Counted from the first letter of the stretch, positions 895 to 46,914 are shown. The stretch: DNA of 64,000 nucleotides from a virus (IMGVR_UViG_3300044630_004416:41440-105439), one strand, 5' to 3'. The notes: generated by a model from the letters alone, not told the origin. A program made the numbers and translations.

Positions 895-2934
895 TTAGTT
901 TACTAACTCACCAAAAGAAACACCAGTTCTTGTTGCAACAAATGTAATTGTAATGTAGTTAATGCTTCTTGCAGGTTTGATATAAATTTCTGCATTCATT
1001 TCATTTGAATCAATTACATCTGGTGTGTTGTTACTTTCATCACATACAACTAAGAAATCATAAATACCTCTTCTTCCCTGAACATTTCTGAGATAAGGTT
1101 CAACTGCAGCTTTGAATGAGCTTCTTGTAACTTCATCGTTAATTTCAAACAATTGGAATTTAGCAAATCTTCCAATATTCTTCTCTAGTTCGATGAATAG
1201 TCTACGAACATTGATTCTATTAAATGCGCTAGGAGAAGCAAGACCTGTCTTATCTCCAAATAGAACAATTCCTTGTCCTGGGAAGGAAACAATTGGATTT
1301 ACTCTATTTGAATAAAGTCTATCTCTTTCTGATTGCTTTGGACTATATGCTAGCTTAGTAGCATTCTTTAGATTTCCTCTATTATATCCAGCAGGTGAGA
1401 ACCAAGTTTCTGAATTGATAGTTGAATTGATGCATAATCCAGCAACATCTGCAGCACATGGTACATATCTGTAAACATCATTATACTTATCGTAGATATA
1501 CTTATATCCACTATCAAAAATAGCGTATGAAGAACTTGCAATTCCTCCGAAGAATGAAATAATATTTTCTGTTTTTGTAGTAGATGTGTCGCTACTAATT
1601 ACATCACTTCTTCTTGGTGATACTACAGCCATACAATCTTTTCTATGCTCTGCAATATCAATTAGCTTGGAAGCTCTTTCTGTGGAAATTTTTCCAGGAA
1701 CTAGGAAATCAACATCATTGAATGTTTCAGAATCTCTTACTAAATCATATGAAGATGTAATCGCAGATTCGATAGCAGCACTATCTGTTGAGAATACATA
1801 ATCAGTTCCTCCACCTAGGCTAAATCCAATTGTGGATGCTCCGCCAGATGAAATTAATGAATATAGTTTGTTTGAGCTATTGGATGTTCCAACTACGCCT
1901 TCAGACTGTCCAGTTCCTGCTTCTAATGTAACTTTATCTGTACCAACAAAGTTGATTCCAGTATCATAGCCAGGATACACATACTTAGACTTTAGTGCCA
2001 TATTAGTATGATAATATACTAATGCACCATCTAGAGTAGTTGCATCTTTTGCTTTAGAAACATAAAGATACTTCTCTAGAATTGTATTTGGATTTCCAGT
2101 GAGTGTTCCTTCTTCATCAATGACAAGAATATGCATTTCATCAAATTTTCCGCCCTTAGAGGAAACTGATGCTGAAGTTCCTGGCTGTGGTGCAATATCT
2201 CTCCACTTGAGTCCAGTAGCATACTCTAGAGTATCATAATAAGTGTTATCTGGAGCTGCTGAAATATCTCCTTCATCAATTAGAACATTAGGTGTTCCTG
2301 CATTATCTGTAATTGAATAAGTTGAATATCCAGTAGTAGGAATTCTCTTAGTTGTATCATTAAGAGTAATGTACAACTTATTGTTAGTAGCGTCTAACTT
2401 ATATACCCATCCAGTTCCTACAGTAGTTGCGCCATTTTTGATGACAATAGCATCACCAGCGGCAACGGTTGGGTCGGTTCCAGTGTAAGTAATTACTTGG
2501 TCTGCACCATGGTCAACTGCAACTACTTTAATAGAATTGAATCTAGTACCAGCGGTTCTTCCAGCAAAACGGAATGCAGTTGATTGGTAATTTGAATAAT
2601 CAAAATCACTCTTTACTATAAAATCTGTTAGTGTGGTTGCTGCATTGTATGCACTTCTGAGTTTGTTAGAACCACTTGAATATGATGGTCTAATTACTCC
2701 TACAATACCACCATACTGAATTACAGTTGATGCTGCAAACCATGACTCATAGTTGTCATTATTTGGTTTTCCAAAAATATTGATTAACTCTGTTTCGCTA
2801 GTAATATAAGTTACTGTATCAACAGGACCAGACTCAGCTGCAATTGCTACTATTGCAACATTTTGGTCAGATACATTTACGGTTGGAGTTAAATCAACCT
2901 CTTTTATAGTTACTCCAGGTGAAGCAAATGACAT
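895..2934 (-). CDS. tail sheath protein (gp18-like)
   Basis: 679 aa, between terminase large subunit and tail tube exactly as T4 gp18 (659 aa). Gly/Thr/Ser-rich structural composition. Confidence 0.7.
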   Translation of the reverse strand: MSFASPGVTIKEVDLTPTVNVSDQNVAIVAIAAESGPVDTVTYITSETELINIFGKPNNDNYESWFAASTVIQYGGIVGVIRPSYSSGSNKLRSAYNAATTLTDFIVKSDFDYSNYQSTAFRFAGRTAGTRFNSIKVVAVDHGADQVITYTGTDPTVAAGDAIVIKNGATTVGTGWVYKLDATNNKLYITLNDTTKRIPTTGYSTYSITDNAGTPNVLIDEGDISAAPDNTYYDTLEYATGLKWRDIAPQPGTSASVSSKGGKFDEMHILVIDEEGTLTGNPNTILEKYLYVSKAKDATTLDGALVYYHTNMALKSKYVYPGYDTGINFVGTDKVTLEAGTGQSEGVVGTSNSSNKLYSLISSGGASTIGFSLGGGTDYVFSTDSAAIESAITSSYDLVRDSETFNDVDFLVPGKISTERASKLIDIAEHRKDCMAVVSPRRSDVISSDTSTTKTENIISFFGGIASSSYAIFDSGYKYIYDKYNDVYRYVPCAADVAGLCINSTINSETWFSPAGYNRGNLKNATKLAYSPKQSERDRLYSNRVNPIVSFPGQGIVLFGDKTGLASPSAFNRINVRRLFIELEKNIGRFAKFQLFEINDEVTRSSFKAAVEPYLRNVQGRRGIYDFLVVCDESNNTPDVIDSNEMNAEIYIKPARSINYITITFVATRTGVSFGELVN

Positions 2935-2993: not shown

Positions 2994-4712
2994 CTATTGA
3001 TACTCCCACATATAAGCTCTATCCCCATATTCATCTACATTCCACCCATTTCCTCTGCTAGGAATGTCCACGAAATCTCCATGGTATCTAGAATTGTCTG
3101 CGACTATCCATTTGTCTCCAGAATTATCTACAAAACTAGTTTCTTCATCTGTCAAGCCATCCAATACAAAACCAAATGGAGCCATATCCTGCTCAATAGC
3201 TTCTCTTTGGTCTTCAAAAATTCTTTTTCTAACATCATTTGAAGTTAACTCCCTGAAATATGGTTGTGTAGATAACCAAGAAAAAATTACCAAGCACATT
3301 GCTAGGTCATCATTACATCCATCCTCTGCACCAAAAGAATCATTCCTTTGAATAAAAGTTGTCAATTCACTAATTACATCATAATCATTAATCAATAATT
3401 TATCATCTTCAATCATGGCCTTTAAGTTAGCACAGCCATATTTTTTAACTGCCTTGGTCATTTTTACACCAAGTTGTGCTTTATTGGAGAATCCAGTTCC
3501 AACAATTTGACCTGCTCGACCTTTCATTGCACACATAAGAAGATTATCATATTCCAAATCAAATTGAAGAATATCTGCTACTTGTCCTCCAATATCATTT
3601 ACTTCTACAAGAACATTTGCATTATTATAACTTCTTCCAACTGTATCAATTATATTTGGAAATAGAATAGGTTTGATTTCATTGTTTTTATATTTTGCAA
3701 CTAACTTATATGGAATGGTAGTTACATCCATAACAGTAAATGCAGAGTAGTCATTTCCAACTCCTCTAGCAACGTCTACAGTCATAACATAATCATGACC
3801 TTCTATTGATTCCTCATATACGTCTAATCCACCACCTTTCTTCATAGCATCCTCATAAACCATTGTACGAAGTTTATTTGGATTAATTAATGTATCTACC
3901 GAACCTAGGAAGTTACATTCAAATTCTTGCTCAAACTGTCGTTGAGAAGTGTTTGCAATAGTTTCTTCTTTCCACTTTTGGTCTCTTCCTGGAACATCCC
4001 ACCAATTAACTTCAAGTGGAACGTAACTATTTTTACCTCGTTCTGCATCATGCCAGAACTTGTAAAACATGTTCATACCCTGTGGGGTAGAAATGATAAT
4101 AACTTTTGTAGTTTTACCAGATGAAATAGTAGGATATACAGAACTGAAGAACTGTTCTGCAATGTGGTTTGGAACGAATGCAAATTCGTCCAGGAAGATG
4201 ATGTTAAAAGAGTTTCCTCGGACAGCAGAAGATGAAGTAGATGCAGCAATAATCTTGGAACCATTCTCTAGCTCCAGTGAACCTCTGTTCCAAGAACCCA
4301 CGCCCTGCTGTAGCCATTTAGGCAAGTTTTCATAGGATAACTGCAATCGCTGTAGAAGTTCTCTTGAGGTCTCCGCTTTATTTGCAAGAATTGCTATTTT
4401 TACGTTTGGATTAAAAAGAGCATAGTGAAGTAGGTAAGACACCACAGTTGTAGACTTACCTGTTTGTCTTGGTAACTTTGCAATGTTGAATCTATTTTTA
4501 TGAAAATTTTCAATCATTCTTTCTTGAAAATCCCACATTTTAAATGGGACCAGACCTTCATCAAGAGAGACAATTTTTATATATTTTTTTGCAAAATATA
4601 TTGGGTCATCCTGACATTTCAAATACTCTTCTAATTCTTGAGCAGTAAATTGAATCTGAACATTAGAAGGTTTTAGATTGGGATTACCCTTATAACTAGA
4701 TTTTTGACTCAT
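2994..4712 (-). CDS. terminase large subunit (gp17-like)
   Basis: 572 aa. Walker A KLPRQTGKSTTV (T4 gp17 SRQLGKT type) and a C-terminal nuclease-like acidic region. Synteny with terminase small subunit and sheath. Confidence 0.85.
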   Translation of the reverse strand: MSQKSSYKGNPNLKPSNVQIQFTAQELEEYLKCQDDPIYFAKKYIKIVSLDEGLVPFKMWDFQERMIENFHKNRFNIAKLPRQTGKSTTVVSYLLHYALFNPNVKIAILANKAETSRELLQRLQLSYENLPKWLQQGVGSWNRGSLELENGSKIIAASTSSSAVRGNSFNIIFLDEFAFVPNHIAEQFFSSVYPTISSGKTTKVIIISTPQGMNMFYKFWHDAERGKNSYVPLEVNWWDVPGRDQKWKEETIANTSQRQFEQEFECNFLGSVDTLINPNKLRTMVYEDAMKKGGGLDVYEESIEGHDYVMTVDVARGVGNDYSAFTVMDVTTIPYKLVAKYKNNEIKPILFPNIIDTVGRSYNNANVLVEVNDIGGQVADILQFDLEYDNLLMCAMKGRAGQIVGTGFSNKAQLGVKMTKAVKKYGCANLKAMIEDDKLLINDYDVISELTTFIQRNDSFGAEDGCNDDLAMCLVIFSWLSTQPYFRELTSNDVRKRIFEDQREAIEQDMAPFGFVLDGLTDEETSFVDNSGDKWIVADNSRYHGDFVDIPSRGNGWNVDEYGDRAYMWEYQ

Positions 4713-4964: not shown

Positions 4965-5731
4965 GCAGCTCCTTCCTTCATTGGAAGACTTGGACCTTTT
5001 AATTTTTTCTGAGCTACTTCTTTCTCTCCAGGATTTGTTGTTCCTTTAGCTAAATTTCTAATTTTTGCTTGTCTTTTTGCAGCACTATGACCAGCACCAA
5101 TTTCAAAACTTACATTATTAGCTTCGCTCATGAATTGAGAGAATGATTTTTGCTCACTTAACTTTTCATCTGAAGATAGATATTCTGCTGCTGTATCAAT
5201 AAAATCTGCTGCTCTAGTAATTTTTGACTGAACCCAAGCAGGAAGTTGTTGATTTGACTTACGAATAATCTTACGCAACATTTGAATAGACCTTTCCATT
5301 TGGTCCATTTCAATATTTGCCATGTATCCTTCATGGTCCTTTATCTTTCCACTTGAAATTTCCTTGTGGTCTTCTTCAATATTCAATTTACGAGTGTACA
5401 TTTCCCATGCACTTGGTCCATAAGAACACTCTCCTTTTGTTTCATTTTTTTCACAAAGATGGCAATAACGAACTTCTTCTTTTTCTTCTTTAACGGATTT
5501 CTTTCCGTCTTTCCATTGAGTTTTTAATTGCTTTTCCATCTTTAGTAAATGCTTGTAATAATTAGGAAATTCTGATATATGCTGAAGAGCAATTCCATAA
5601 GCTTCTTCATGTGTGGTTACATGCTCTCGCTCTACAGTAGAACCAATCTCTGCCTGTCTAATAACATAATCAACAGAGACGCCATGTTTTCTGGCAATTT
5701 CTTTTTCTGTTGGAATTCTCTTCTTAGACAT
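4925..5731 (-). CDS. hypothetical protein with N-terminal helix-turn-helix-like segment
   Basis: 268 aa. EKEIARKHGVSVDYVIRQ resembles an HTH. C-terminus is Lys-rich. Lies between terminase small and large subunit genes. Confidence 0.5.
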   Translation of the reverse strand: MSKKRIPTEKEIARKHGVSVDYVIRQAEIGSTVEREHVTTHEEAYGIALQHISEFPNYYKHLLKMEKQLKTQWKDGKKSVKEEKEEVRYCHLCEKNETKGECSYGPSAWEMYTRKLNIEEDHKEISSGKIKDHEGYMANIEMDQMERSIQMLRKIIRKSNQQLPAWVQSKITRAADFIDTAAEYLSSDEKLSEQKSFSQFMSEANNVSFEIGAGHSAAKRQAKIRNLAKGTTNPGEKEVAQKKLKGPSLPMKEGAAWTKKSGKHQAAV

Positions 5732-6252
5732 TATCCACCTACGACTTGAACTTGTTCAAATACAACAGATGCTCCAATAGCTTCTAGTTTTGCAACTCTA
5801 ACTACTTGAGCTGGAACTCCAGTGGAATGAGTAAAATCTGAAGTTGCAGAAGATGCATCAATATCAGTAGTAATTGTGTTTCCAGTTTTTGCAGTAATTT
5901 TTTTCCCAGCAGATGCTGCAGATTCAAATGCTGAAGGAAGAATTGAACCTGAATCTACTACTGCGATATAATCTCCTACTCCAAATGGATGAGTATCTGT
6001 AGTTACTCCTGCCATACCAAGAGTATATACACAATTTAATGAATCTGATGCCTTATAAATTATTGCTTTTCCAGCTTTTCCTCCAGAAACTAATAAAGAT
6101 TCTGTAGATTTTAATACTATTGCAGGACCATCATTAATTTTAATTGTACAATCACTCCCAGCAGTTACACGAAATACTCCACTGGACATTTCTGTATAAC
6201 CAGTTGCTCCAGCTGCAACAGTAGTTGTTGATATTACATTAAGTACTGACAT
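5731..6252 (-). CDS. hypothetical virion-type protein
   Basis: 173 aa, Gly/Ala/Thr/Ser-rich with structural-protein-like composition. Start overlaps the stop of the upstream gene. Confidence 0.45.
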   Translation of the reverse strand: MSVLNVISTTTVAAGATGYTEMSSGVFRVTAGSDCTIKINDGPAIVLKSTESLLVSGGKAGKAIIYKASDSLNCVYTLGMAGVTTDTHPFGVGDYIAVVDSGSILPSAFESAASAGKKITAKTGNTITTDIDASSATSDFTHSTGVPAQVVRVAKLEAIGASVVFEQVQVVGG

Positions 6253-6262
6253 TAAAATACTC

Positions 6263-6706
6263 CTATTCTTCTGTATTATTTAGTTTTGATTGTTTTAGAA
6301 ACTTCTGTAGTTCTGCTGTACTGCCAATAAAAACAGAATTATTTACAGTTGATGGTCCTCTAGTACCAGATTCTTCTTCAATGTCTTTTAATTTTTTCTG
6401 CAAATCTATTAATTTTTCTGCCAATTCAGAAACATTTTTGATTCCTTGGAATGCAACTTCATATGCTCTTGGGTGGTCACTTTGCTGAGCGACATCCATG
6501 ATTCCATTGATTGCTTTTTGTCCTTTTTCAATTAAATTGTATAGTTGTGAACGGCTGTATTCAAAATCAGCATTTACTTTTTCTGATGTAGGTTCGTCCT
6601 CAGACTTTACAATTTCTACTGATGAAACTTCTGGTTCTATTGGAGTAATATTAAATGTTTTGTCTAGTTCTTCGTAGGATGCCATATCTATTAGGTCGTA
6701 GTCCAC
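6263..6706 (-). CDS. terminase small subunit (T4 gp16-like)
   Basis: 147 aa. Segment DFEYSRSQLYNLIEKGQKAINGIMDVAQQSDHPRAYEVAFQGIK...LQKKLKDI aligns with T4 gp16 [44 protein letters not shown]...LHKDMKDI. NNSVFIGSTAEL aligns with NATVFMGSPTEL. Confidence 0.7.
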   Translation of the reverse strand: MDYDLIDMASYEELDKTFNITPIEPEVSSVEIVKSEDEPTSEKVNADFEYSRSQLYNLIEKGQKAINGIMDVAQQSDHPRAYEVAFQGIKNVSELAEKLIDLQKKLKDIEEESGTRGPSTVNNSVFIGSTAELQKFLKQSKLNNTEE

Positions 6707-7491
6707 ATTTCATTAAATCCAAAATCATCATCTGGTTCTACAAATGCATCATCTGCAGCATTAATAACGCCATCATCATTATAATCAACCAGAGCTTTTG
6801 GAGTTACACTATATCTAATGTATCTTTCTGCATTAATTGCAGTTCCAATATCTACATTTACTTTCTTAATAATTTCAGATGTAGTAACTGGACCATAGAT
6901 ATATGATTTTGCAGTAAAATTCAAACTATAAATTATAGTTCTTCTTGTTAAAAAACTACCTTCATAGTCATCTCGTATTCCTATATTTTGAAGTACAATT
7001 GGAATATCTTTATATTCATCAGTCTCAGACAACATATTAATTGAGATGTTAAATACTGGCTGAAAAAATGGAAGAATTTGTTCAAGAATTTGAACAGCAT
7101 CATCATTTGTTTTACTGATAATTGCCAAGTCAAAATCTAAATTATATGGAACTGGCATATAATGTGAATATGTTTTTTCAGTTTCTCCATCCTTTGGACT
7201 TCTGCATACTTGAACTGGTCCCAATTTTCTGGATGAATCATATGATATATTTTTTAATTCAAATGAAATTCTTGGAAGTTGAATTTGAGTAGGTCTTCTT
7301 TTATCTAAGTCTGGTTCTGCCTCAATTCTTGCCAAGAATTTTTCTACTGGACCATATGCAAATGGTACTTTGATTGTTTGAACTACTCCATCTTCAGAAT
7401 TTTTTCTTCTCAATTCAATATTATTGAATAAAGTTCCAAATCCTATAATAGTTCTTCGTATAGATTCGTTATAAAAATGTTTGCCTAGCAT
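6691..7491 (-). CDS. gp15-like tail completion / sheath stabiliser (synteny-based)
   Basis: 266 aa (T4 gp15 is 272 aa), immediately upstream of the terminase small subunit as in T4. Confidence 0.5.
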   Translation of the reverse strand: MLGKHFYNESIRRTIIGFGTLFNNIELRRKNSEDGVVQTIKVPFAYGPVEKFLARIEAEPDLDKRRPTQIQLPRISFELKNISYDSSRKLGPVQVCRSPKDGETEKTYSHYMPVPYNLDFDLAIISKTNDDAVQILEQILPFFQPVFNISINMLSETDEYKDIPIVLQNIGIRDDYEGSFLTRRTIIYSLNFTAKSYIYGPVTTSEIIKKVNVDIGTAINAERYIRYSVTPKALVDYNDDGVINAADDAFVEPDDDFGFNEMWTTT

Positions 7492-8585
7492 TAAAATTCT
7501 CCCATGTTAGTAAATTCACCGAATGGATTTTTCTCAGACCAATCAACAATAGGATTAGCATTATCTTCAAACCATTTATTTTCATTGAAATCATCATTTT
7601 GATTTTCAATAGAACTAAATGTTTGTATTACCCATTCTGCGTTGCTTTCGTTTCCAATTAAAGTTTCATTATCTTTAAATGTTCCTACTATATCTATAAG
7701 CTCAATTTCACTATTTGTTACATCATATCTGATTACTTTTCCTGTTGCTCCACTTATAGAACCAGTCACAGTTTCATTTGTTTTATATACTCCATTTGCA
7801 GCCAATACTGCCTGTGCAGTAGCTCCAGTACCAGAGCCATTAATTATTACGCCAGGAACAGAAGTATAATTACTACCAGGATTTACTATATTGATTGCAG
7901 AAATTTGACCATTTGTTATGGTTGCAGTTGCTGTTGCAGTAGTTGCTCCAGATATTGTACCAAAAGAAACGGTAGTATTTGTTCCATAGTTATTACCACC
8001 AGATAGTATATCAACTTCTTTAATTCCCTTGGTAAGAGAGAATGTAATTGAATATCCTTCATCTCTTCTAATATTATCAATTTCAGGAACTCCAGTTTCA
8101 AATCTTTCACTGGAATCTTCCATGACTTCACATATTAATTGATATGTGGCAATTTGGTTTAATTGTCTAAATGGTTTATTATGCTCTACAAATTTAATTT
8201 GGAATAGTTGATTGGTTAATGGAAAATATATCACATCTCCTTCATTTGGTCTGTGATTGGAAATTAAATTATTAGAAGAAGAAATTAAATCTTCCCATCT
8301 TCTTTTTGAAATTATAAATGTTGCTTCCTCTGCAATTCGTACTCCAAATCTTGTCATTAATGCACCATCGCCTTCAAATCCCTGAATATTAGCGAGGTAC
8401 ATTTCTATTATATAATTTTCATCAAATTTTGCTAGTGGGTCTTCTCCAAATAATCTATCATCAGTTACAAGTTCTCTTGGTAAATAATATACATCAAAAC
8501 CATATATTTTCAAAGATTCTATGATTAAATCTTCATACAATCTTTGTTCTGAACTAGTTCCGTGAGAAAAATATACGTTTTTCAT
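7491..8585 (-). CDS. gp14-like neck protein (synteny-based)
   Basis: 364 aa at the gp14 position between the gp13-like and gp15-like genes. Confidence 0.45.
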   Translation of the reverse strand: MKNVYFSHGTSSEQRLYEDLIIESLKIYGFDVYYLPRELVTDDRLFGEDPLAKFDENYIIEMYLANIQGFEGDGALMTRFGVRIAEEATFIISKRRWEDLISSSNNLISNHRPNEGDVIYFPLTNQLFQIKFVEHNKPFRQLNQIATYQLICEVMEDSSERFETGVPEIDNIRRDEGYSITFSLTKGIKEVDILSGGNNYGTNTTVSFGTISGATTATATATITNGQISAINIVNPGSNYTSVPGVIINGSGTGATAQAVLAANGVYKTNETVTGSISGATGKVIRYDVTNSEIELIDIVGTFKDNETLIGNESNAEWVIQTFSSIENQNDDFNENKWFEDNANPIVDWSEKNPFGEFTNMGEF

Positions 8586-9409
8586 TATCCAACCATATCT
8601 AGTGGAGGTAATTCATATGTACTTAGTAGTTCTTGATATAATTTATCTACCTCTCCAATTGCATCATCATATATTTGACGACCATTAAATGTAACTCCAC
8701 CTGGCATTTGAATACCTTCAAATTTAATGAGATTTTGTCCCCATTGTTTCTTAATGAGTGCTGTTAAATATTTTTTAATCCAAATTTCATTATATAATTT
8801 ATTAAAATCATTTGGGTCTAATGCTCGATAACAATCAATGACAATAAAATCATCCTTAGTTTGCATTCCCCAATCTAAATCAATATACAATCTGTTTTGT
8901 ACTTTATTATATCTAATATCTTTATTTCCTTCCAACATAAAATCTAAGGTCTCAAGATAAGTCAAGACCATATAGTAATTCATAATATCATATGAATAAA
9001 AGTTATAGAAATCGTTCAAGAAGAACTGATATCTAAAACCAAACATGTTATTGACAAAAGCATTAGATACTTTAAAGATGCCTTGAACTCCAATAACATG
9101 GTCAGGAACAGTTAAGTATCCTCTTCCCTCTTCAAAATTTAAAGTTCTGGATAAATCAGAATCATTTGTATCAGTTTTAGTAGTGGTAAAATTTCTTTTC
9201 TTTCCATTATCAATATCTTCTTGTGTCACTTTATATTTTAAATACATTCTTTCCATTCCACCATATGCTCTTTCGTTGTAAAGCTGTATGGTGTCATCAA
9301 TCAAATCTTCAATCTGGTCGTCATCGACATTGATTTCGATAACTGGCTTACCAAGTTTTCTAAGACAATATTCTTTTAATTGTGCTCTACTACTTGGTTT
9401 TGCCATCAT
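8585..9409 (-). CDS. gp13-like neck protein (synteny-based)
   Basis: 274 aa at the gp13 position. Start overlaps the downstream gene start codon (ATGA). Confidence 0.45.
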   Translation of the reverse strand: MMAKPSSRAQLKEYCLRKLGKPVIEINVDDDQIEDLIDDTIQLYNERAYGGMERMYLKYKVTQEDIDNGKKRNFTTTKTDTNDSDLSRTLNFEEGRGYLTVPDHVIGVQGIFKVSNAFVNNMFGFRYQFFLNDFYNFYSYDIMNYYMVLTYLETLDFMLEGNKDIRYNKVQNRLYIDLDWGMQTKDDFIVIDCYRALDPNDFNKLYNEIWIKKYLTALIKKQWGQNLIKFEGIQMPGGVTFNGRQIYDDAIGEVDKLYQELLSTYELPPLDMVG

Positions 9410-36658: not shown

Positions 36659-36838
36659 TTAATCTCCTACTTTATGTATACGAATACCTGGACTATCATG
36701 ATGCTCAAAGAATTCCCACTCTAAAGTGTCTCCTTCTGCCCACTGCATCTCATCTAGTAACTCATCTGGAAAAACTAAGAAATATTCTCCAGATTTTTCA
36801 TCATATTGAACTTCTGTAGTATAAGAAAATGTTGACAT
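36659..36838 (-). CDS. small acidic protein (59 aa)
   Basis: Manual translation MSTFSYTTEVQYDEKSGEYFLVFPDELLDEMQWAEGDTLEWEFFEHHDSPGIRIHKVGD. GTAAATA motif about 20 nt upstream of the ATG. Confidence 0.4.
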   Translation of the reverse strand: MSTFSYTTEVQYDEKSGEYFLVFPDELLDEMQWAEGDTLEWEFFEHHDSPGIRIHKVGD

Positions 36839-36839
36839 A

Positions 36840-37290
36840 TGTGTATGAATATTTACAGTATATAGTAAAAAAATTTTTTTTACATTTTTTCAGAATTTTT
36901 TGAATTTTTCGGTGAAATTTTTTCCGAGAATTTTCAAAATTTCTCTGATTGTGATGTAAATGTATGAAAATTCCTCGGAATGAGTCGTTTTTGTGCTTAT
37001 TTTAGTGATTTTTTGAGTCATTTTGAGGAATTTTGTGGGCAAATGGGGGAATTTGGGGAAAACTTGGAGGGACTTGGAGGGACTTGGAGATTTTTCGGAA
37101 AATTTTTTTGGGTGATTGAGTATCTTTCGGTCGTCTTCAAAGGTTTATAGCTTAGGAGGGACCCAAACTTTTTGTACGGGGCGGGGCGGCCAACCCATAA
37201 GGGGCGCTAATGACTGCCCTCTGCTCCCATAAGGACTGCTGATGCATCAGAAGGGCTGATGAATGGGGGCCGAAGCCCCCTGAATCTCTC
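36840..37290. repeat. repeat-rich non-coding region at a compositional boundary; candidate origin or regulatory region
   Basis: At least 8 copies of GAAWTTTT (36890-37100). Three tandem ACTTGGAGGG units (37061-37090). Imperfect 20-bp direct repeat CCCATAAGGnnnGCTrATG at 37193 and 37227. Palindrome CTGATGCATCAG. Ends in hairpin GGGGGCCGAAGCCCCC (37265-37280). GC rises from about 25% to about 60% across it. No ORF. Confidence 0.55.
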
Positions 37291-37291
37291 A

Positions 37292-37459
37292 TCAGACATC
37301 CATCTCCAGAAGCTTGCCCAGAAGGGCTTCCACATCCTGGCGGGATTCAAACAACTGCCAGGGCTGGCTGCGACGGTCGGCGGCAATCAGGCCAGACATC
37401 ACCAAACGGCGAGCGATGCGAATCTCGGCGTTGGTCAGGGTCAGGGTCTTGGTGGGCAT
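37292..37459 (-). CDS. small GC-rich-island protein (55 aa)
   Basis: MPTKTLTLTNAEIRIARRLVMSGLIAADRRSQPWQLFESRQDVEALLGKLLEMDV with strongly G/C-ending codons. Preceded by the TGCTAGGATT-CTCAGTTCAAA leader. The track's 168-aa version (37292..37798) is read-through across the upstream gene. Confidence 0.45.
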   Translation of the reverse strand: MPTKTLTLTNAEIRIARRLVMSGLIAADRRSQPWQLFESRQDVEALLGKLLEMDV

Positions 37460-37532
37460 TGGTCGGTTCCTTTGAACTGAGAGAATCCTAGCATGGATGG
37501 GGGAGCCCCGAAGGGCTCCCGTTAACATTTGT

Positions 37533-37844
37533 TCACACAGGCGTGTTGCGGTCCTGGCTCCAGTTACGCAGCCTGCGGTTGCTGGCCTTGCTGTAAACTC
37601 GGTCGCCAATGGTACGGTCCCCCACGGTGATGGCGCTGCGGCCTGCAGCATCAGCGGCGGCCTGCAGGGCTTGGCGACCCAGCTTGCGCTCAGAGGGAAG
37701 GGCGACCTCAGAGGTGGCCAGGTCAAACAGCCACTGAGCACGGTGGCGGCCCACGATGGTGGGTTCCTTGATGGTTCGCTTGGCGAGGGCCACGGCAATG
37801 ATGGTGGGAACAGCGGTGCGGGTCAGACGGTCGGAGCGGGTCAT
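37533..37844 (-). CDS. hypothetical protein of GC-rich island (103 aa)
   Basis: High-GC codon usage (acc, cgc, ctg, gcc). Preceded by GC hairpins and a TATAAT box. Confidence 0.5.
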   Translation of the reverse strand: MTRSDRLTRTAVPTIIAVALAKRTIKEPTIVGRHRAQWLFDLATSEVALPSERKLGRQALQAAADAAGRSAITVGDRTIGDRVYSKASNRRLRNWSQDRNTPV

Positions 37845-37958
37845 GGTCTCAGGTAGGTTGTGGGGGCTTCTCTCGCCCCCGTGTTCATATTATAGGGTAT
37901 CGGGGGGAGGCTGGCGATGCCCCAGCCCCGACTTGTAACAAACTGAAATAATTATATT

Positions 37959-38627
37959 TTAGGCGACAATCTCATTGACTGTTTTTTTAGCATTACCGTG
38001 AGCAGGGAAAGCAATAATGAAGTCCCTGTCTGCTTTAGCACAAAGGCCACAAGTTGCACAAGTTACATTCTCATGAATAGTTGCAGGACAAGTGATAACT
38101 TTACGACCAGATTCTGTTTTATAGAATCGTTCGGTTTTATCAGACTTGACAACAGCCACTGCAGGAATGTTGTGCTCAGTCATGATAGCATCAGCCACCT
38201 CAACATCCTCAGTGGATGCATTGATTGTGAAGCCTTTGTTGTTAGCTTCCTTGATGACTTGCAGGTTGTGGTTGTTAAGAACGTGGTGGGTATAAGTGTA
38301 ACCTTTGCGGCCTTTGTTTGCATCAGCCAGTGCAGATACCATGGGAGCATTAATGTCACCCAGGATATGTGGCAGGTCGCCAGATACATTGTGCCGCCAG
38401 AGTTGGCCACGCTGAAGCTTGCGAATTGCGTTCACAAACTCCTGGAAATTAACACCCCTTTCCTGTTCAGTTACCTTGCGCCAGTGAATAGCTTGGGGGC
38501 CAGACTTGGCGTAGCAACCTTTATCGTAAAAGGGGCAAGTGCTGGGGCAGGTCTCACGGCTGGAGGTGCTGGTAGGGATGGGGCCAGTCTTAGCGTTGCT
38601 GGAGACCTGGGTGAGAGCGAAGTTCAT
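37959..38627 (-). CDS. Cys-rich hypothetical protein (222 aa), possible metal-binding
   Basis: N-terminal CPSTCPFYDKGC and C-terminal CPATIHENVTCATCGLC clusters. Moderately GC-rich codons. Preceded by the same TGCTAGGATT-CTCAGTTCAAA leader as the 55-aa gene. Confidence 0.55.
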   Translation of the reverse strand: MNFALTQVSSNAKTGPIPTSTSSRETCPSTCPFYDKGCYAKSGPQAIHWRKVTEQERGVNFQEFVNAIRKLQRGQLWRHNVSGDLPHILGDINAPMVSALADANKGRKGYTYTHHVLNNHNLQVIKEANNKGFTINASTEDVEVADAIMTEHNIPAVAVVKSDKTERFYKTESGRKVITCPATIHENVTCATCGLCAKADRDFIIAFPAHGNAKKTVNEIVA

Positions 38628-38693
38628 GACTTGGGTTTGAACTGAGGTAATCCTAGCAGGTGGTGGGGGCTGGAGAGCCCCCTGTTACAAAGC

Positions 38694-38933
38694 TTAACCT
38701 TTGGCCAGCCAGTCGGAGACTGACATAATCCAGCCCTCGCTGTGCCAGGTGCGGAATCGGTCAGTCTTAAACTGTTCCCACTGTTCGGCAGTCAGCTGGT
38801 GGCCTTCCACCATAACGGGCTCGGTGCTGGGCTTGGGCTTAGCCTGTCCCAGGTTAGCACGGAACCGCTCGGCGGCAGCATCAGCCTGGCTCAGCTCAGG
38901 GCTCAGGCCAGGGAGGTGCTCGGTGTTGAACAT
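38694..38933 (-). CDS. hypothetical protein of GC-rich island (79 aa)
   Basis: GC-rich ORF preceded by a TTGTAACA-hairpin-TGTTGTAGGATT leader. Confidence 0.5.
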   Translation of the reverse strand: MFNTEHLPGLSPELSQADAAAERFRANLGQAKPKPSTEPVMVEGHQLTAEQWEQFKTDRFRTWHSEGWIMSVSDWLAKG

Positions 38934-39009
38934 TGGTCGGTTGCGACTGCCCCAGAATCCTACAACATGGGGGCTGCCACCTGGCCAGCCCTGTTACAAT
39001 TTGAAATAT

Positions 39010-39201
39010 TTACATCTCCAGCTGCCAATCTTGGTCCTTTGTAACATTAACCCAGAAGAAGTTCCTGCCATTCATACTACGCAGGAAGACTTTATCACCT
39101 TTGGATTGTTCAACGATGCAATGTTCACAAGATTCCATTAGATTGGCGAATCTGTTTTTAGCTTTCTTTGAGATAGGCTTGACAGAAACAATTGTTTCCA
39201 T
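39010..39201 (-). CDS. hypothetical small protein (63 aa)
   Basis: ORF with C-x2-C (CEHC). Preceded by the G7/C7 hairpin element. Confidence 0.45.
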   Translation of the reverse strand: METIVSVKPISKKAKNRFANLMESCEHCIVEQSKGDKVFLRSMNGRNFFWVNVTKDQDWQLEM

Positions 39202-39585: not shown

Positions 39586-39795
39586 GATGTTTCAGTGAAT
39601 GAACTTTAATAATGTACAGGATGGGGGCTGAGTTGTCAACCCCCTTGTGACACTATCAGAATTGGATTTCTTCTAGTGTGGGCTCCATAGATTCATCCAC
39701 AGAATCTACAGAAAGCATGTCCAGAATGGTGAGAATCTCATCACCAGTCTGACCTTTGCGAAGCATCGAAATCAGCAGTTCTTTAGACATAATAA

Positions 39796-39927: not shown

Positions 39928-39965
39928 GGGTTGTTCAGTAGTGAACGAGTTCAGTATGGCATGGG

Positions 39966-40009
39966 TGGGGGCTGGTGTCAACCCCTGATTGATTAGAGTT
40001 GCTTATCAT
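39966..40009 (-). promoter_or_regulatory. PeSL-like cassette copy A: GC hairpin overlapping a sigma70-like promoter
   Basis: Minus strand reads GGGGTTGACACCAGCCCCCACCCATGCCATACT (TTGACA-17-CATACT). About 43 bp nearly identical to copy B. Confidence 0.5.
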
Positions 40010-40328: not shown

Positions 40329-40370
40329 TTGAGTGGTTCAGAATTGAACAATGATAATTTAACTCTAAAA

Positions 40371-40413
40371 GGGGCTGGTGTCAACCCCCTGACTGATTAG
40401 TGTTACTTATCAA
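40371..40413 (-). promoter_or_regulatory. PeSL-like cassette copy B
   Basis: GGGGCTGGTGTCAACCCCCTGACTGATTAGTGTTACTTATCA. Minus strand TTGACA-17-TAAATT. Confidence 0.5.
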
Positions 40414-41024: not shown

Positions 41025-41047
41025 GGGTTCAATGTGTGAACAGAGTC

Positions 41048-41077
41048 ACTATAGGGGGTTTTCGGAGGGTTGTCAAG
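41048..41077 (-). promoter_or_regulatory. sigma70-type promoter P1 (TTGACA-17-TATAGT)
   Basis: Minus strand reads CTTGACAACCCTCCGAAAACCCCCTATAGTGACTCTGT. Confidence 0.65.
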
Positions 41078-41156
41078 AGGGTTTGAATAAGTATATCTTA
41101 TATGGTTAATAATCTCTAGATATACTTAATAATTATTTGTTACCCTCCACAGAGTC

Positions 41157-41185
41157 ATTATACACATATCTGGGTGTGTTGTCAA
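41157..41185 (-). promoter_or_regulatory. sigma70-type promoter P2 (TTGACA-17-TATAAT, perfect consensus)
   Basis: Minus strand reads CTTGACAACACACCCAGATATGTGTATAATGACTCTGT. Shares TATARTGACTCTGT with P1. Direct repeats TATATGGTTAATAAT twice and ATATACTTAATAATT three times nearby. Confidence 0.65.
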
Positions 41186-41360
41186 GTGTATATGGTATAT
41201 GGTTAATAATTTGTAATATGGAGTTTTCCACAGGTTTTTCCACAGGGCTGTGGAAAACTATCAAAGGGGCTCGGAGTGATTAGGAGTGCTTATATTAGTA
41301 TTCCTTATGAGTGGCCTCGGAATGATTTGGAATACTTATGAGTTTTTTGGGGCTGGGGGC

Positions 41361-41389
41361 TTGACAAATTTCGGAAGTCATGGTATACT
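41361..41389 (+). promoter_or_regulatory. plus-strand sigma70-type promoter (TTGACA-17-TATACT), divergent from P1/P2
   Basis: CTTGACAAATTTCGGAAGTCATGGTATACTG on the plus strand. Perfect inverted repeat TTTTCCACAGGGCTGTGGAAAA lies 110 bp upstream. No convincing plus-strand ORF downstream. Confidence 0.55.
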
Positions 41390-41613
41390 GCGGGCCAAGA
41401 CTGCTGCAGCCCCGTACATTTCAGATACTTTCTCTGACACCATCGGACACACACACATACAAATACAGTATATACTTAATAATTCTCTCTCTACACATTA
41501 TATACTTAATAATTTCTCTTATTCCTTCTCTCTATACATAACACTCAACTATATTTTTTATTACATTTAATGAATGTTAATAATTTATACTAATTTTAAC
41601 ATATCTTTCCGCA

Positions 41614-41814
41614 TCACATATACTTTATCATTGAATCTGCTATTTGCCAACAATATACTGATACTAATTCATCAGCATCTACTTCTGCATCTTTTGCTGC
41701 TCTCTGAAAGTTTGTTTCTAATACATTTGATGCTAACTGTGCTAATGCTATCTTAGCAAATTCAATTCTTAATTCTTGCCTTGTTTCTTCTGTTAAATTC
41801 ATGTGAAGGTACAA
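41614..41814 (-). CDS. hypothetical small protein
   Basis: 66-aa ORF. Likely real start at the internal MNLTEETRQ. Confidence 0.4.
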   Translation of the reverse strand: MYLHMNLTEETRQELRIEFAKIALAQLASNVLETNFQRAAKDAEVDADELVSVYCWQIADSMIKYM

Positions 41815-46662: not shown

Positions 46663-46914
46663 TCAATACCATTGTGCCAGTCGTTCAGCCGCACGTTCCC
46701 TGGCTGCTGCACGACGGTCTGCCTTGACTTGCTCAGCATACTGGACAACGATGCCTTCCAGATTCTTGGGCATGTAGGCTCCCAGACCAGTGACAGGGGT
46801 GATAGTCATGCCCCTGCCGCTTCCAGGGCCGCCTCCAACGGCTACAGAGCCCTTTACGCCATCTGCACCGTTGCCGAGGTTGCCAATTGCTTTGTGTTGA
46901 TTGTGGAGTGCCAT
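46663..46914 (-). CDS. Gly-rich small protein in a local GC-rich patch (83 aa)
   Basis: GNLGNGADGVKGSVAVGGGPGSGRG. About 55% GC with G/C-ending codons. Directly downstream of the helicase gene. Confidence 0.45.
   Translation of the reverse strand: MALHNQHKAIGNLGNGADGVKGSVAVGGGPGSGRGMTITPVTGLGAYMPKNLEGIVVQYAEQVKADRRAAARERAAERLAQWY

Follow-up and report, generated by a model that had tools for sequence, protein, structure and literature searches.

A long-lived GC-rich gene array in a T4-like cyanophage, probably a variant of promoter/stem-loop cassettes

How does a phage with an AT-rich genome come to hold, at one point, a compact run of small genes in GC-rich DNA? The question is raised by a window of 64,000 nucleotides of viral DNA (IMGVR_UViG_3300044630_004416:41440-105439), the whole stretch analysed here, whose GC content by composition count is 0.557 over 37150-39000 and 0.346 overall. 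The flanks stand at 0.315 over 1-36800, the late genes adjoining the island, and at 0.377 over 39200-64000. Scanned in 200-nt windows, GC is 0.245 at 36800-36999 and climbs to 0.585-0.675 at 37200-37899; it falls to 0.43-0.475 within the gene g222, returns to 0.55-0.63 at 38400-38999 and reaches 0.38 by 39000-39199. Beyond that, on the early side, it is 41% at 39-40 kb and 36% at 40-41 kb, and lies between 35% and 44% as far as 48 kb. A preliminary description of this DNA had reported an island of about 1.8 kb that is GC-rich in an AT-rich phage genome, which these counts bear out, and had interpreted it as a recent import from a high-GC host or phage, arriving as leader-plus-gene cassettes. 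The span it gave holds genes from 37292 onward; the first ~140 nt (37150-37291) contain no gene and belong to a conserved non-coding element, termed here ncE.

The window comes from a T4-like cyanomyovirus. Its tail sheath, TerL, baseplate wedge proteins, helicase and RNA ligases are of T4-like type, all genes lie on the minus strand, and its DNA is similar to that of Synechococcus myoviruses. The island closes the early region: a series of small early ORFs lies on one side of it and the structural module on the other. Its genes and boundaries are as follows.

36659-36838, minus strand: g59, a conserved 59-aa gene at which the variable locus is bounded downstream (on the late side), with a 959-aa structural gene after it
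36839-37099, minus strand: AT-rich spacer of ~25-35% GC with A-tract words, ending in a TATATACTGTAAATA motif just before g59
37100-37291, minus strand: ncE, a conserved GC-rich non-coding element closing the island
37292-37459, minus strand: g55, a 55-aa cassette gene (GC3 0.76)
37533-37844, minus strand: g103, encoding a basic, mostly helical 103-aa protein (GC3 0.77; GC1 0.65, GC2 0.56)
37959-38627, minus strand: g222, encoding a DUF7227/GP88-superfamily protein (GC 0.48, below its neighbours; GC3 0.49)
38694-38933, minus strand: g79, a 79-aa cassette gene (GC3 0.73; dN/dS 0.2-0.3)
39010-39201, minus strand: g63, a conserved 63-aa gene matching phrog_1653 and forming the upstream boundary of the variable locus

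GC-rich DNA yields long ORFs in several frames, here on both strands, and one might therefore suspect either an assembly chimera or a GC-rich structural RNA overlaid with spurious ORFs. The four small ORFs of the preliminary description nonetheless exist, all on the minus strand and encoding 55, 103, 222 and 79 amino acids, and they are protein-coding: dN/dS values of 0.1-0.45, conserved lengths and membership in real families rule out structural RNA. Scanning the window and the island for tRNAs and Rfam families found nothing, Rfam giving for the island and ncE no match at gathering score and just chance-level matches at E below 1. Because the same g63-g79-g222-g103-g55 order recurs in separately made assemblies (five samples or more, four data sources), the jump in GC is not an assembly chimera; collinear IMG/VR contigs of up to 172 kb carry this gene order too. 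An artefactual origin, to which we would give practically no weight, is already refuted by the dN/dS values, all below 0.5 in fixed-length protein families, and by this gene order.

Family searches with the island cargo ORFs returned no match of known function. The 222-aa protein, previously described only as Cys-rich, proved to be a real family without assigned function: it matches PF23872 (DUF7227) end to end over residues 1-221 (295.8 bits against a cut-off of 27, E 2.6e-88) and PF17338 (GP88) at 37.3 bits against a cut-off of 24.4. Its invariant cysteines form two clusters (C27, C31 and C38; C180, C190, C193 and C196), and an Fe-S or radical-SAM-like enzyme is one possibility for DUF7227. 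The hallmarks of radical SAM enzymes are a CX3CX2C cluster motif, placed on the loop that follows strand 1 of a partial TIM barrel, and SAM-binding motifs. Searches of DUF7227 against PDB sequences gave spurious ankyrin matches alone, Foldseek gave no significant match, and the literature search found no mention of DUF7227 or its Pfam accessions, 'GP88' there denoting mostly the unrelated progranulin. The family of g103 comprises 54 clusters at 60-95% identity, all metagenomic, and a search of 1.84 billion proteins clustered at 50% identity gave just 18 clusters; it has an invariant GRHRAQWL motif and dN/dS of 0.13-0.39, and its structure model (pLDDT 79) matches generic helical folds and nothing more. 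The g79 family is smaller still (7 clusters in 5.8 billion), and g55, with homologues in two related contigs, L006 (91%) and L019 (63%), and dN/dS of about 0.1-0.46, has no match in Pfam, PHROG or NCBIfam.

Ahead of each of these genes stands a three-part leader: first a TGTnAC box, next a GC hairpin, then TG(n)TAGGAT with (G)TTCA after it. The shared hairpin leader noticed earlier was found in full at all four positions named. Within the window the complete combination of box, hairpin and -10-like motif occurs on the minus strand in the island alone, four times, and in none of 20 shuffled windows; CTAGGATTnnCTCAGTTCAAA and the combination TTGTAACA-N15-35-TAGGATT each occur twice against 0.01 expected. 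The four leaders are listed here.

37460-37532, minus strand: g55 leader, with TGTTAAC box (37521-37527), hairpin (37501-37520) and TGC+TAGGAT (37485-37490), then CTCAGTTCAAA
37845-37958, minus strand: g103 leader, with an AT-rich stretch, TTGTTACAA box (37933-37941), hairpin (37907-37929) and TATAAT (37889-37894)
38628-38693, minus strand: g222 leader, with TTGTAACA box (38683-38690), hairpin (38665-38682) and TGC+TAGGAT (38650-38655), then CTCAGTTCAAA
38934-39009, minus strand: g79 leader, with TTGTAACA box (38992-38999), hairpin (38971-38991) and TTG+TAGGAT (38957-38962)

Directly 5' of the -10 motif, each of the four leaders, and likewise 14 from related phages, has a stem of 6-12 bp and -14 to -20 kcal/mol. 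The g55 hairpin has a predicted energy of -20.1 kcal/mol (z -2.9); the g103 leader holds a second hairpin in its predicted 5' UTR (37862-37880), and its two stems, at -20.1 and -14.4 kcal/mol, keep their positions in relatives while their sequences change. In orthologous leaders generally, the box, -10 motif and TTCA are kept and the stem sequence varies. The 18 differing hairpin sequences at equivalent positions all pair on the sense strand, with 134 Watson-Crick, 17 G.T and 3 A.C pairs, an excess of G.T over A.C that is partly circular, as the hairpin finder accepted G.T pairs; the pairs were counted by script, the MAFFT alignment of the leaders having left the hairpins out of register. As none of the island hairpins has a U-tract, they are not canonical intrinsic terminators, and none was listed as one on the sense strand. 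The leaders have no -35 hexamer 16-18 nt from the -10 motif; a TTGTAA-like box lies 29-41 nt upstream instead, a spacing that sigma-70-type recognition does not explain. Two accounts of this box were rejected, that of an NtcA-type activator site, for which the second half-site of GTA-N8-TAC is absent, and that of cruciform extrusion bringing the box to the -35 position, which would leave just 10-11 nt outside the stem.

The same phage's neighbouring early genes supply a direct comparison, since some of their promoters have the classic form of the promoter-early stem-loops, or PeSLs, defined in other T4-like phages (PMC2839356, PMC4122927).

39590-41190, minus strand: neighbouring small early genes with canonical TTGACA-N17-TAnnnT promoters
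39611-39639, 39953-39981, 40356-40384, 41048-41076 and 41157-41185, among others: -35 hexamer in the loop of a GGGG...CCCC hairpin, the classic PeSL form

These canonical early promoters (39.3-41.2 kb) and the island leaders carry a GGGG...CCCC hairpin at the same place relative to the -10 motif and a common arrangement of -10, 7-8 nt and TTCA start region; the 3' arm and spacer are alike as well, CCAGCCCCCACC occurring both in the g222 leader and in the promoter at 39953-39981. They differ in that the former hold TTGACA in the hairpin loop at N17, whereas the island leaders lack TTGACA and carry the upstream TGTnAC box. Because the (G)TTCA start region is common to the phage's own canonical early promoters, the leaders are native to the phage lineage.

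Whether the genes behind these leaders are recent arrivals was addressed with nine non-redundant related contigs (L006, L007, L009, L010, L012, L016, L017, L018 and L019). A GC-rich island of 55-67% GC lies upstream of the conserved g59 in 9/9 and downstream of the conserved g63 in the seven whose locus reaches that far. The gene g59, which matches phrog_661 and has a GC3 of 0.20, is 78-85% identical in all relatives and always just past the island; g63 always directly precedes it, at 73-86% identity in six of the seven relatives covering this side and 52% in L018. The Dishui Lake phage DSL-LC03, listed among metagenome-assembled genomes, has a weaker island (~49% GC, with peaks of 57-64%) in which the next ORF after the annotated DUF7227 gene lacks annotation but clusters with g103; in the marine phage Sf-FR1, where the island is seen more weakly, tblastn detects a g103 homologue, and a GP88 gene lies one ORF upstream of it. 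The comparison thus contradicts the earlier proposal of recent import: a GC-rich island stands at the same site in all relatives.

It could still be argued that the segment is foreign, having come with its own promoters from another phage or a GC-rich host, and is not yet ameliorated. The composition does step sharply at 37.1 kb, the codons are typical of GC-rich bacteria, the amino-acid composition is shifted too (g103 GC1 0.65, GC2 0.56), and g79 and g55 are patchy enough in distribution that single accessory cassettes could be imports of some date. Against this stand the fixed site in all relatives and DSL-LC03, the pairing of GP88 and g103 in a marine phage, the start region that the leaders have in common with the phage's own early promoters, and the failure to find any relative of the g103 protein in 185,579 prokaryote species genomes. 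Island genes have, moreover, diverged about as far as flanking backbone genes. A rough calculation of decay toward a GC3 of ~0.25 gives values below 0.5, but those observed in g103 are 0.62-0.80 at dS up to 1.2; and the bias is toward C-ending rather than G-ending codons, unlike plain GC mutation pressure. Recent acquisition of the island as a whole is largely refuted, and we consider it very unlikely. The locus is an old shuffling hotspot.

The shuffling is visible among the same relatives, which together carry ~25 ORF families in islands ranging from ~1.4 kb (L006) to ~4.9 kb (L016), that of the window being ~1.7 kb. One family, F3, stands at one end of the array in some phages and at the other end in others; a single slot is filled by either DUF7227 or GP88, relatives carrying a GP88 member where the window has g222; g79 is present in L017, L018 and L019 and absent in L006, L009, L012 and L016; and the nearest relative differs by gene, being L006 for g103 (95%), L019 for g222 (94%) and L017 for g79 (72%). 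Cassette order is otherwise largely conserved. Because g103 occurs in every relative whose locus covers its slot, it is a core gene of the island, and the conserved core of the locus is the GP88-superfamily gene plus g103; other cassettes come and go between fixed boundaries. The clearest event is the absence of g79 from L006, in which the single leader between g63 and g222 is a chimera: it matches the window's leader A on the 5' side and leader B on the 3' side, with the junction in TAGGATTCT, and the 5' half of the g79 leader reappears in it. This is the one clean chimeric junction documented. The earlier view of the segment as promoter-leader-plus-gene cassettes is supported.

What, then, keeps the island GC-rich? 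GC3 is 0.76 in g55, 0.77 in g103, 0.49 in g222 and 0.73 in g79, as against 0.16-0.51 in the other ORFs examined, and the codon counts (CTG 0.70, CGC 0.52, ACC 0.84, GCC 0.64 and GGC 0.67; GCG, ACG and CGG 0-0.05) confirm the G/C-ending codon usage (acc, cgc, ctg, gcc) noted at the outset. The bias is durable and gene-specific. GC3 of g103 is 0.62-0.80 in every lineage at dS 0.44-1.19, while g59, 450 nt away, is at 0.20-0.34; across nine genomes the third positions of g103 are C at 0.41-0.53 and A at 0.00-0.12; and g222 remains at 0.46-0.52 in all lineages between neighbours at 0.7-0.8. Since GC3 is stable despite dS of 0.4-1.2, the composition is maintained rather than un-ameliorated, and the bias toward C-ending and away from A-ending codons points to selection. 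Being an early gene does not by itself explain the bias, because most other early genes, those behind canonical promoters, have an ordinary GC3 of just 0.2-0.45. Cyanomyoviruses are known to retain low-GC genomes and to add tRNAs against GC-rich hosts (PMC3152331).

A regional mutational process would also yield lasting GC richness: the leaders would make the locus a recombination hotspot, where GC-biased conversion or repair raises GC locally with no contribution from codon selection. High cassette turnover and mosaic gene phylogenies imply frequent recombination, the non-coding hairpins and ncE are GC-rich too, and GC declines gradually on the early side (from 41% to 36%, then 35-44% to 48 kb). 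Such a process should not, however, spare g222 in mid-island, nor does it accord with third positions that favour C over G and T over A while NCG codons are nearly absent. This asymmetry is strand- and codon-specific and therefore fits translational selection; a regional process as the full explanation seems unlikely, though somewhat less so than recent import.

The late end of the array has its own signature. A hairpin resembling a terminator lies in ncE at 37265-37280; the element also carries ATCAGCAGT twice, with a CTGATGCATCAG palindrome, as well as a run rich in C and the invariant CTAAGCTATAA, which occurs once in the window. nhmmer places ncE at the same position in every relative and in DSL-LC03, with conserved blocks visible in the alignment. 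Its reading as a structured RNA was rejected (weak RNAalifold consensus, with a covariation term near zero or unfavourable on both strands, and no Rfam match), in favour of a DNA-level signal. By blastn the non-coding region had no match in phage genomes, and a 14-mer scan of IMG/VR with ATGCTGTAGGATTC gave >120 matches, which is about chance level by estimate and so uninformative. Beyond it, the AT-rich spacer carries three copies of GGACTTGGAG on the plus strand (37058-37090), is alignable in relatives, and has no ORF with homologues (36839-37099).

Our preferred explanation, which we hold to be probably correct, is that the island is a cyanophage variant of PeSL promoter/stem-loop cassettes: a long-lived hyperplastic locus with a conserved non-coding end and selected codon bias. 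The comparisons show how the locus is built and conserved, that its genes are coding, one indel with a chimeric junction, and a stable composition; that the leaders start or stop transcription, that the genes are expressed early, how cassettes recombine and why the codons are biased is inferred from sequence. The array would consist of tandem self-contained cassettes at the GC-rich end of a hyperplastic early-gene region, each running from the previous gene's stop codon and TGTnAC box through the GC hairpin, promoter, (G)TTCA start and ~20-nt leader to a small ORF. The hairpin may act in sense RNA as an attenuator or as a 3'-end stabiliser of the upstream message, and the putative promoter, -35-less and of extended-minus-10 type (TG(n)TAGGAT or TATAAT), would presumably be read by unmodified host RNA polymerase, on which early cyanomyovirus expression is thought to rely (PMC3152331). 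The leader repeat of 25-45 nt between cassettes would be a substrate for the phage's own homologous recombination. Because that sequence is repeated between cassettes, whole cassettes could be deleted, inserted, swapped and moved with the expression of neighbours undisturbed, cassette turnover being bounded by g63 on one side and by ncE and g59 on the other. High GC would be a maintained, gene-specific codon bias, plausibly selected for translation with a GC-rich host's tRNA pool at the very start of infection.

A bolder joint reading, which we offer tentatively and do not expect to hold in full, is that freshwater and estuarine T4-like cyanophages keep the g63-to-ncE locus as a host-codon-adapted, immediate-early toolbox swapped leader-to-leader. 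Its genes would be driven by a distinct -35-less class of signal (TGTnAC box, hairpin, TG-TAGGAT) and held by strong selection at host-optimal, C-ending codons, and ncE might be a T4-type origin or recombination entry site. If true, this would exceed PeSLs in offering a new promoter architecture, a selected composition in an AT-rich virus and a fixed capture site. In either form the proposal predicts a class of early promoters without a -35, attenuation at the hairpins and recombinants joined leader to leader; it nominates the GP88-superfamily gene, the 103-aa protein and ~25 accessory ORF families as candidates for action in the first minutes of infection of GC-rich picocyanobacteria, and it marks ncE out as a possible origin or boundary signal. 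A phage may have a strong GC island without recent transfer, composition having been stable here through near-saturating synonymous divergence with a codon-specific bias, and for this reason 'islands' seen in sliding-GC plots of viruses should be compared with relatives before being called foreign.

Two known kinds of cassette system invite comparison. Integron arrays resemble the island in having tandem small ORFs, mostly without assigned function, between hairpin repeats, with content varying inside fixed boundaries; they differ in that each island cassette appears to carry its own promoter. Integron attC sites are imperfect palindromes of 57-141 bp with R''/R' core sites RYYYAAC and GTTRRRY. 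An integron array was rejected here, as TTGTAAC departs from RYYYAAC, the stem is not followed by GTTRRRY and no intI is among the ORFs scanned near the locus. More generally, box and hairpin might form the recombination site of a dedicated recombinase, whether of an integron-type site-specific system or of a MITE/REP mobile repeat, as could be suggested by the promoter-proximal small ORFs between hairpin repeats, the fixed boundaries with ncE at one end, the presence of one cassette family at different positions in different phages, and the speculation by Arbiol et al. that a protein recognises GGGG...CCCC stems (PMC2839356). Yet the ORFs scanned near the locus include no integrase, transposase or recombinase, the hairpins are perfect GC stems of 18-24 nt and variable sequence rather than attC sites, the conserved part is the -10-like motif plus start region, as for a promoter, and the L006 junction falls in a homologous stretch, which fits homologous recombination; we regard such a system as highly improbable.

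The closer likeness is to PeSLs, known from the T4-like phages RB49/phi1, T4/PST and KVP40/nt-1 (PMC2839356, PMC4122927), that is, from enterobacterial, Yersinia and Vibrio phages only, so that the present locus would extend the cassette-shuffling idea to cyanophages. Few PeSLs were reported in S-PM2, the one cyanophage examined for them (PMC4503421), and shuffling by their means was judged unlikely there. Like PeSLs, the island leaders are intergenic composite elements beside small orphan ORFs in a hyperplastic region of a T4-like genome; in all four, a stable polyG...polyC-type stem-loop adjoins or overlaps an early-type promoter; they are densely repeated, with the upstream gene's stop codon 5' and the start of a small ORF 3'; and indels and replacements occur between relatives. 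Leader-to-leader exchange of cassettes is the mechanism described for PeSLs in other T4-like phages, and the L006 chimeric junction lies between -10 and ATG, where Arbiol et al. mapped PeSL crossovers (PMC2839356). There are also differences. The sigma-70-like -35/-10 pair ~17 nt apart is seen in the neighbouring promoters at 39.6-41.2 kb, whereas the island leaders carry in its place a -10-like TAGGAT extended by TG; 5' of the stem they have a further conserved box, TGTnAC, and they show no clear Shine-Dalgarno. The cargo is uniformly GC- and C3-rich in an AT-rich phage, with a composition kept across the clade, and the array lies between fixed boundaries, with a conserved non-coding element at its end. 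Finally, the host group of the island is cyanobacterial, and whereas the island is known here from its sequence, the promoter and terminator activity of PeSLs and their excised mini-circles were demonstrated by reporter assays and by inverse PCR in infected cells (PMC2839356).

The GC-rich island at 37150-39000 lies in a genome that, on the evidence of T4-type PHROG matches and DNA similarity to the Synechococcus myoviruses S-CREM1, S-SRM01, S-PM2, and DSL-LC03, is assigned to the T4-like cyanomyoviruses, the window being part of it. All long ORFs of the window are on the minus strand, and the structural genes include two giant ORFs of 2,089 and 3,375 aa. Along the transcribed direction, small genes come first in a long series (64 kb to 37 kb), then the structural module (36.8 kb to 1), and the island is located exactly where the two meet. 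The 64-kb window carries no tRNA genes. The landmark genes are as follows.

895-2934, minus strand: tail sheath (PHROG match)
2994-4712, minus strand: large terminase (PHROG match)
Within the window, minus strand: baseplate wedge proteins, a helicase, and two RNA ligases (PHROG matches)

GC content is 0.557 at 37150-39000 vs 0.315 at 1-36800 and 0.377 at 39200-64000, and a 200-nt profile climbs steeply at 37.0-37.2 kb, dips within the 222-aa gene, and drops at 39.0 kb. The four ORFs named in the preliminary description, designated here by their lengths in amino acids (g79, g222, g103, and g55), are all present on the minus strand, confirming its account of a GC-rich, four-ORF island. Independent assemblies, covering at least five samples, repeat the gene order, which rules out an assembly chimera as the source of the GC jump. 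The ORFs are genes under purifying selection, with pairwise dN/dS against relatives of 0.1-0.45 for g55, g103, and g79 and approximately 0.07-0.19 for g222; on these low values we reject the alternative of a structural RNA with spurious ORFs. Scans of the window and the island returned no Rfam or tRNA matches.

Over its whole length, the product of g222 matches Pfam DUF7227 (E 2.6e-88), with a weaker match to GP88; more than 1,700 clusters are known. The g103 family is tiny. The 54 clusters homologous to g103 show 60-95% identity, almost constant length, and an invariant GRHRAQWL motif, and no relatives were found among 185,579 prokaryote species genomes. Its predicted model is a small helical protein (pLDDT 79) for which structure comparison gave no informative neighbors. 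Three separate stretches of a 1,742-aa protein of the representative library, P0212, match the g103 profile (E 1e-26), an odd size for a family whose other members have 90-130 aa. Both g79 and g55 have few homologs and are orphans in family searches.

Each island gene is preceded by a conserved hairpin leader, as had been claimed. Four matches to the complete motif (a TGTnAC box, a stem of 6 bp or more, and TAnnnT within 3-13 nt) occur, all on the minus strand and ahead of the four island genes, and there are none in 20 shuffled windows; CTAGGATTnnCTCAGTTCAAA (exact) and TTGTAACA-N-TAGGATT each occur twice in the window vs 0.01 expected. On the minus strand, the leader starts at the stop codon of the preceding gene and runs through a short AT-rich stretch, whose 3' end is TTGTAACA, TTGTTACA, or TGTTAAC, into a GC hairpin of 6-9 bp (loop 4-9 nt, -14 to -20 kcal/mol). 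There follow 6-10 nt ending in TGC or TG, a -10-like TAGGAT (TATAAT in the g103 leader), 7-8 nt, (G)TTCA, approximately 15 nt, and the ATG. Island leaders have no -35-like hexamer 16-18 nt from the -10, the TTGTAA-like box lying 29-41 nt from it, and no U-tract after their stems.

Among 18 non-identical leader copies from the window and its relatives, stem sequence varies while pairing is maintained (134 Watson-Crick pairs, 17 G.T, 3 A.C, and 7 other), and orthologous leaders retain the box, -10, and TTCA but change their stems. That G.T outnumbers A.C on the sense strand is only suggestive of a role for the stem in sense RNA, since the hairpin search itself allowed G.T pairs. The g103 leader carries a second hairpin (37862-37880) just past the -10, at the predicted 5' end and 5' UTR of the mRNA. 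In relatives, at least three unrelated stems (GGGGGCGAGAGAAGCCCCC, GCGAGGCAAACGGACCTCGC, and GGGGACAGAGATCCCCC) occupy this position, which suggests a conserved 5'-terminal stabilizing structure. In a more distant relative (L003, 3485-3575), the same leader, with its hairpin and TGCTAGGATTCTCTCAGTTCAAA, stands ahead of an AT-rich gene; the leader therefore is not tied to GC-rich cargo.

Textbook TTGACA-N17-TAnnnT promoters precede the genes at 39.3-41.2 kb; several carry TTGACA within the loop of a GGGG...CCCC hairpin, with 7-8 nt and then TTCA further on. The g222 leader (GGGGGCTCTCCAGCCCCCACCACCTGCTAGGAT) and the promoter at 39953-39981 (GGGGTTGACACCAGCCCCCACCCATGCCATACT) agree in their 3' arm and over some of the spacer. 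The island leaders therefore derive from the lineage's own promoter/stem-loop elements, and the proposal that promoters were imported with foreign cargo does not hold. Nearby, the stretch at 41030-41620 is largely non-coding and contains three copies of ATATACTTAATAATT, an extreme GC skew (-0.6 at 41400-41700), and duplicated strong promoters inside a 38-nt repeat.

41157-41185: TTGACA-N17-TATAAT promoter
41048-41076: TTGACA-N17 promoter with TATAGT

Relatives were found by an exact leader-pattern scan and by protein-based scans for g103 and g79, which led to collinear IMG/VR contigs whose gene order was mapped by tblastn. In every relative, the island ends with a conserved non-coding element, ncE, and then the conserved boundary gene g59, which precedes the 959-aa structural gene; in the seven whose locus reaches far enough upstream, it starts directly after another conserved gene, g63. 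The stretch from g63 to ncE has 54-57% GC, with windows up to 70%, and ranges in length from 1.4 kb in L006 and 1.7 kb in the window through 3.4 kb in L009 to 4.6-4.9 kb in L012 and L016.

Cassette order in the window and in related contigs
Window, L019: g79, g222, g103, g55
L006: g222, g103, g55
L017: F3, g79, g222, g103
L018: g79, GP88-type gene, g103, one other
L009: one small ORF, g222, g103, six more
L012, L016: GP88-type gene replacing g222, g103, then 9-11 more small GC-rich ORFs (in L016, additionally one small ORF ahead of the GP88-type gene)

Approximately 25 ORF families occur across the nine genomes. Family F3 closes the array in L009, L012, and L016 but opens it in L017, and the nearest relative varies by gene (L006 for g103, 95%; L019 for g222, 94%; L017 for g79, 72%). 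The g222 slot is occupied in L012 (5041-5895), L016 (~5137-5895), and L018 (~6320-7080) by a 252-284-aa GP88-type protein (Pfam GP88, E 9e-43), apparently a distant superfamily member that has replaced g222 in this one slot. In L006, which lacks g79, blastn shows both flanks overlapping on a single leader. Its 5' side is that of the window's g63-g79 leader (loop CCAGGTGGC, ATGyTGTAGGATTCT) and its 3' side that of the g79-g222 leader (CTCAGTTCAmACCCAAGyC ATGAACTTC), and the alignment places the chimeric junction in TAGGATTCT, between the -10 and the ATG. The locus is an array with a repeated leader, conserved boundaries, variable content, and one chimeric junction.

In the Dishui Lake genome DSL-LC03, an unannotated 109-aa ORF (L001, 5087-5416) follows the DUF7227 gene and is clustered with g103 in blastp comparison; here, too, the island ends at ncE. 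In marine Sf-FR1, a g103 homolog, SfFR1_65 (36% identical), has a GP88 gene upstream of it, with one small ORF between the two, in a region of 48-51% GC within surroundings of ~38%, a few kb before the baseplate genes. A GP88-superfamily gene adjoining a g103-family gene, or one small ORF away from it, recurs in the freshwater/estuarine clade (window, 37533-38627), DSL-LC03 (L001, 4001-5416), and Sf-FR1 (L020, 3007-4375). The two proteins may work together.

The terminal element ncE (37100-37291, minus strand; also L001, 5807-5960) is GC-rich and non-coding, and marks the end of the island in DSL-LC03 as in every relative. Its features are a terminal hairpin, a CTGATGCATCAG palindrome flanked by two ATCAGCAGT repeats, a C-rich run, and an invariant CTAAGCTATAA, which occurs once in the window. 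Neither strand gave a convincing RNA fold or an Rfam match, and ncE may be a DNA-level signal, e.g. a T4-type origin (promoter plus downstream AT-rich unwinding region). Between ncE and g59 lies an AT-rich spacer of ~260 nt (36839-37099), alignable across relatives, with phased A-tract words (GAAAATTTTTTCC-like), three copies of GGACTTGGAG (plus strand, 37058-37090), and, just before g59, TATATACTGTAAATA, which looks like a late promoter. The spacer has received insertions in L017 (an extra AT-rich segment) and L009. In the latter alone, a 187-aa ORF with an HNH motif (HIDGNKQNN...NLRWV) directly follows ncE (8405-8968); it is likely a homing endonuclease at the island boundary.

GC3 of g103 is 0.62-0.80 in nine lineages at dS values of 0.44-1.19 to the window copy, and g79 and g55 behave in the same way; g222 is steady at 0.46-0.52 and flanking g59 at 0.20-0.34 (dS 0.8-1.2). 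By our own rough decay estimate (~0.5 substitutions per synonymous site per lineage, equilibrium near 0.25), a passive GC3 of 0.75 would now be below 0.5. The observed GC3 is not, and the island composition therefore is at a gene-specific equilibrium. Recent acquisition of the island as a whole, as first proposed, is not supported in view of this stability in nine lineages and the presence of the locus in DSL-LC03 and Sf-FR1: the notion of cassettes with their own leaders stands, that of recent foreign cargo does not, although single accessory cassettes may have been imported at some time.

The bias also differs from plain GC pressure. Island genes use CTG (0.70), CGC (0.52), ACC (0.84), GCC (0.64), and GGC (0.67), with GCG, ACG, and CGG at only 0-0.05, and in all nine genomes the third positions of g103 hold C at 0.41-0.53, G at 0.20-0.27, T at 0.18-0.31, and A at 0.00-0.12. 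Regional GC-biased conversion might account for the GC richness, but we consider it improbable given this preference of C over G and the stably lower GC3 that g222 keeps in mid-island. Codon choice across the window separates into three tiers.

Late structural genes: TTA, AGA, GGA, GCA
Other early genes: CGT, ACT, GGT, GCT
Island genes: C-ending set plus CTG (CTG, CGC, ACC, GCC, GGC)

Only one other ORF in the window is clearly GC-enriched (46663-46914, minus strand; 83 aa, 57% GC, GC3 0.51); its place is just downstream of the helicase gene. In sum, the island is a cassette locus that is long-lived and recombining, whose leader is a variant of the promoter/stem-loop type, whose codon signature is probably maintained by selection, and at whose end stands a conserved non-coding element; its genes are coding, under purifying selection, and stable in their codon-specific composition.

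In the mechanism we propose for this locus, the leader hairpin would act as an attenuator or stabilizer for the upstream message, and the leader as a -35-less extended-minus-10 promoter for the next gene, read early by unmodified host RNA polymerase; cyanomyoviruses are without alt/mod and motA/asiA (PMC3152331). The 25-45 nt common to the leaders would permit homologous recombination to delete, insert, replace, and move cassettes while leaving expression of their neighbors intact, and cassette exchange via repeated leaders is the model put forward for the promoter-early stem-loops (PeSLs) of T4-like phages (PMC2839356, PMC4122927). The C-ending bias could fit these genes to a GC-rich host's tRNA pool at a stage when phage tRNAs have yet to accumulate, an idea weakened by the fact that other early genes are without the bias.

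No earlier description of this GC-rich locus was found in the limited literature searched, which does not prove novelty. An integron-type array fails on both integrase, absent among the ORFs scanned near the locus, and attC. PeSLs, described for enterobacterial, Yersinia, and Vibrio phages, and judged too sparse to matter in cyanophage S-PM2 (PMC4503421), are the closest known kind. Like them, the island sits in a hyperplastic region, has stem-loops at its predicted promoters, and is associated with indels, with a crossover inside the element, in the same -10-to-ATG interval to which PeSL mini-circle crossovers were mapped (Arbiol et al., PMC2839356). The -35/-10 promoter with N17 spacing, in contrast, is absent from the island leaders and found in the neighboring promoters. 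As promoter and terminator function are here deduced from sequence, the island is best regarded as a variant that would work like PeSLs rather than as a proven member.
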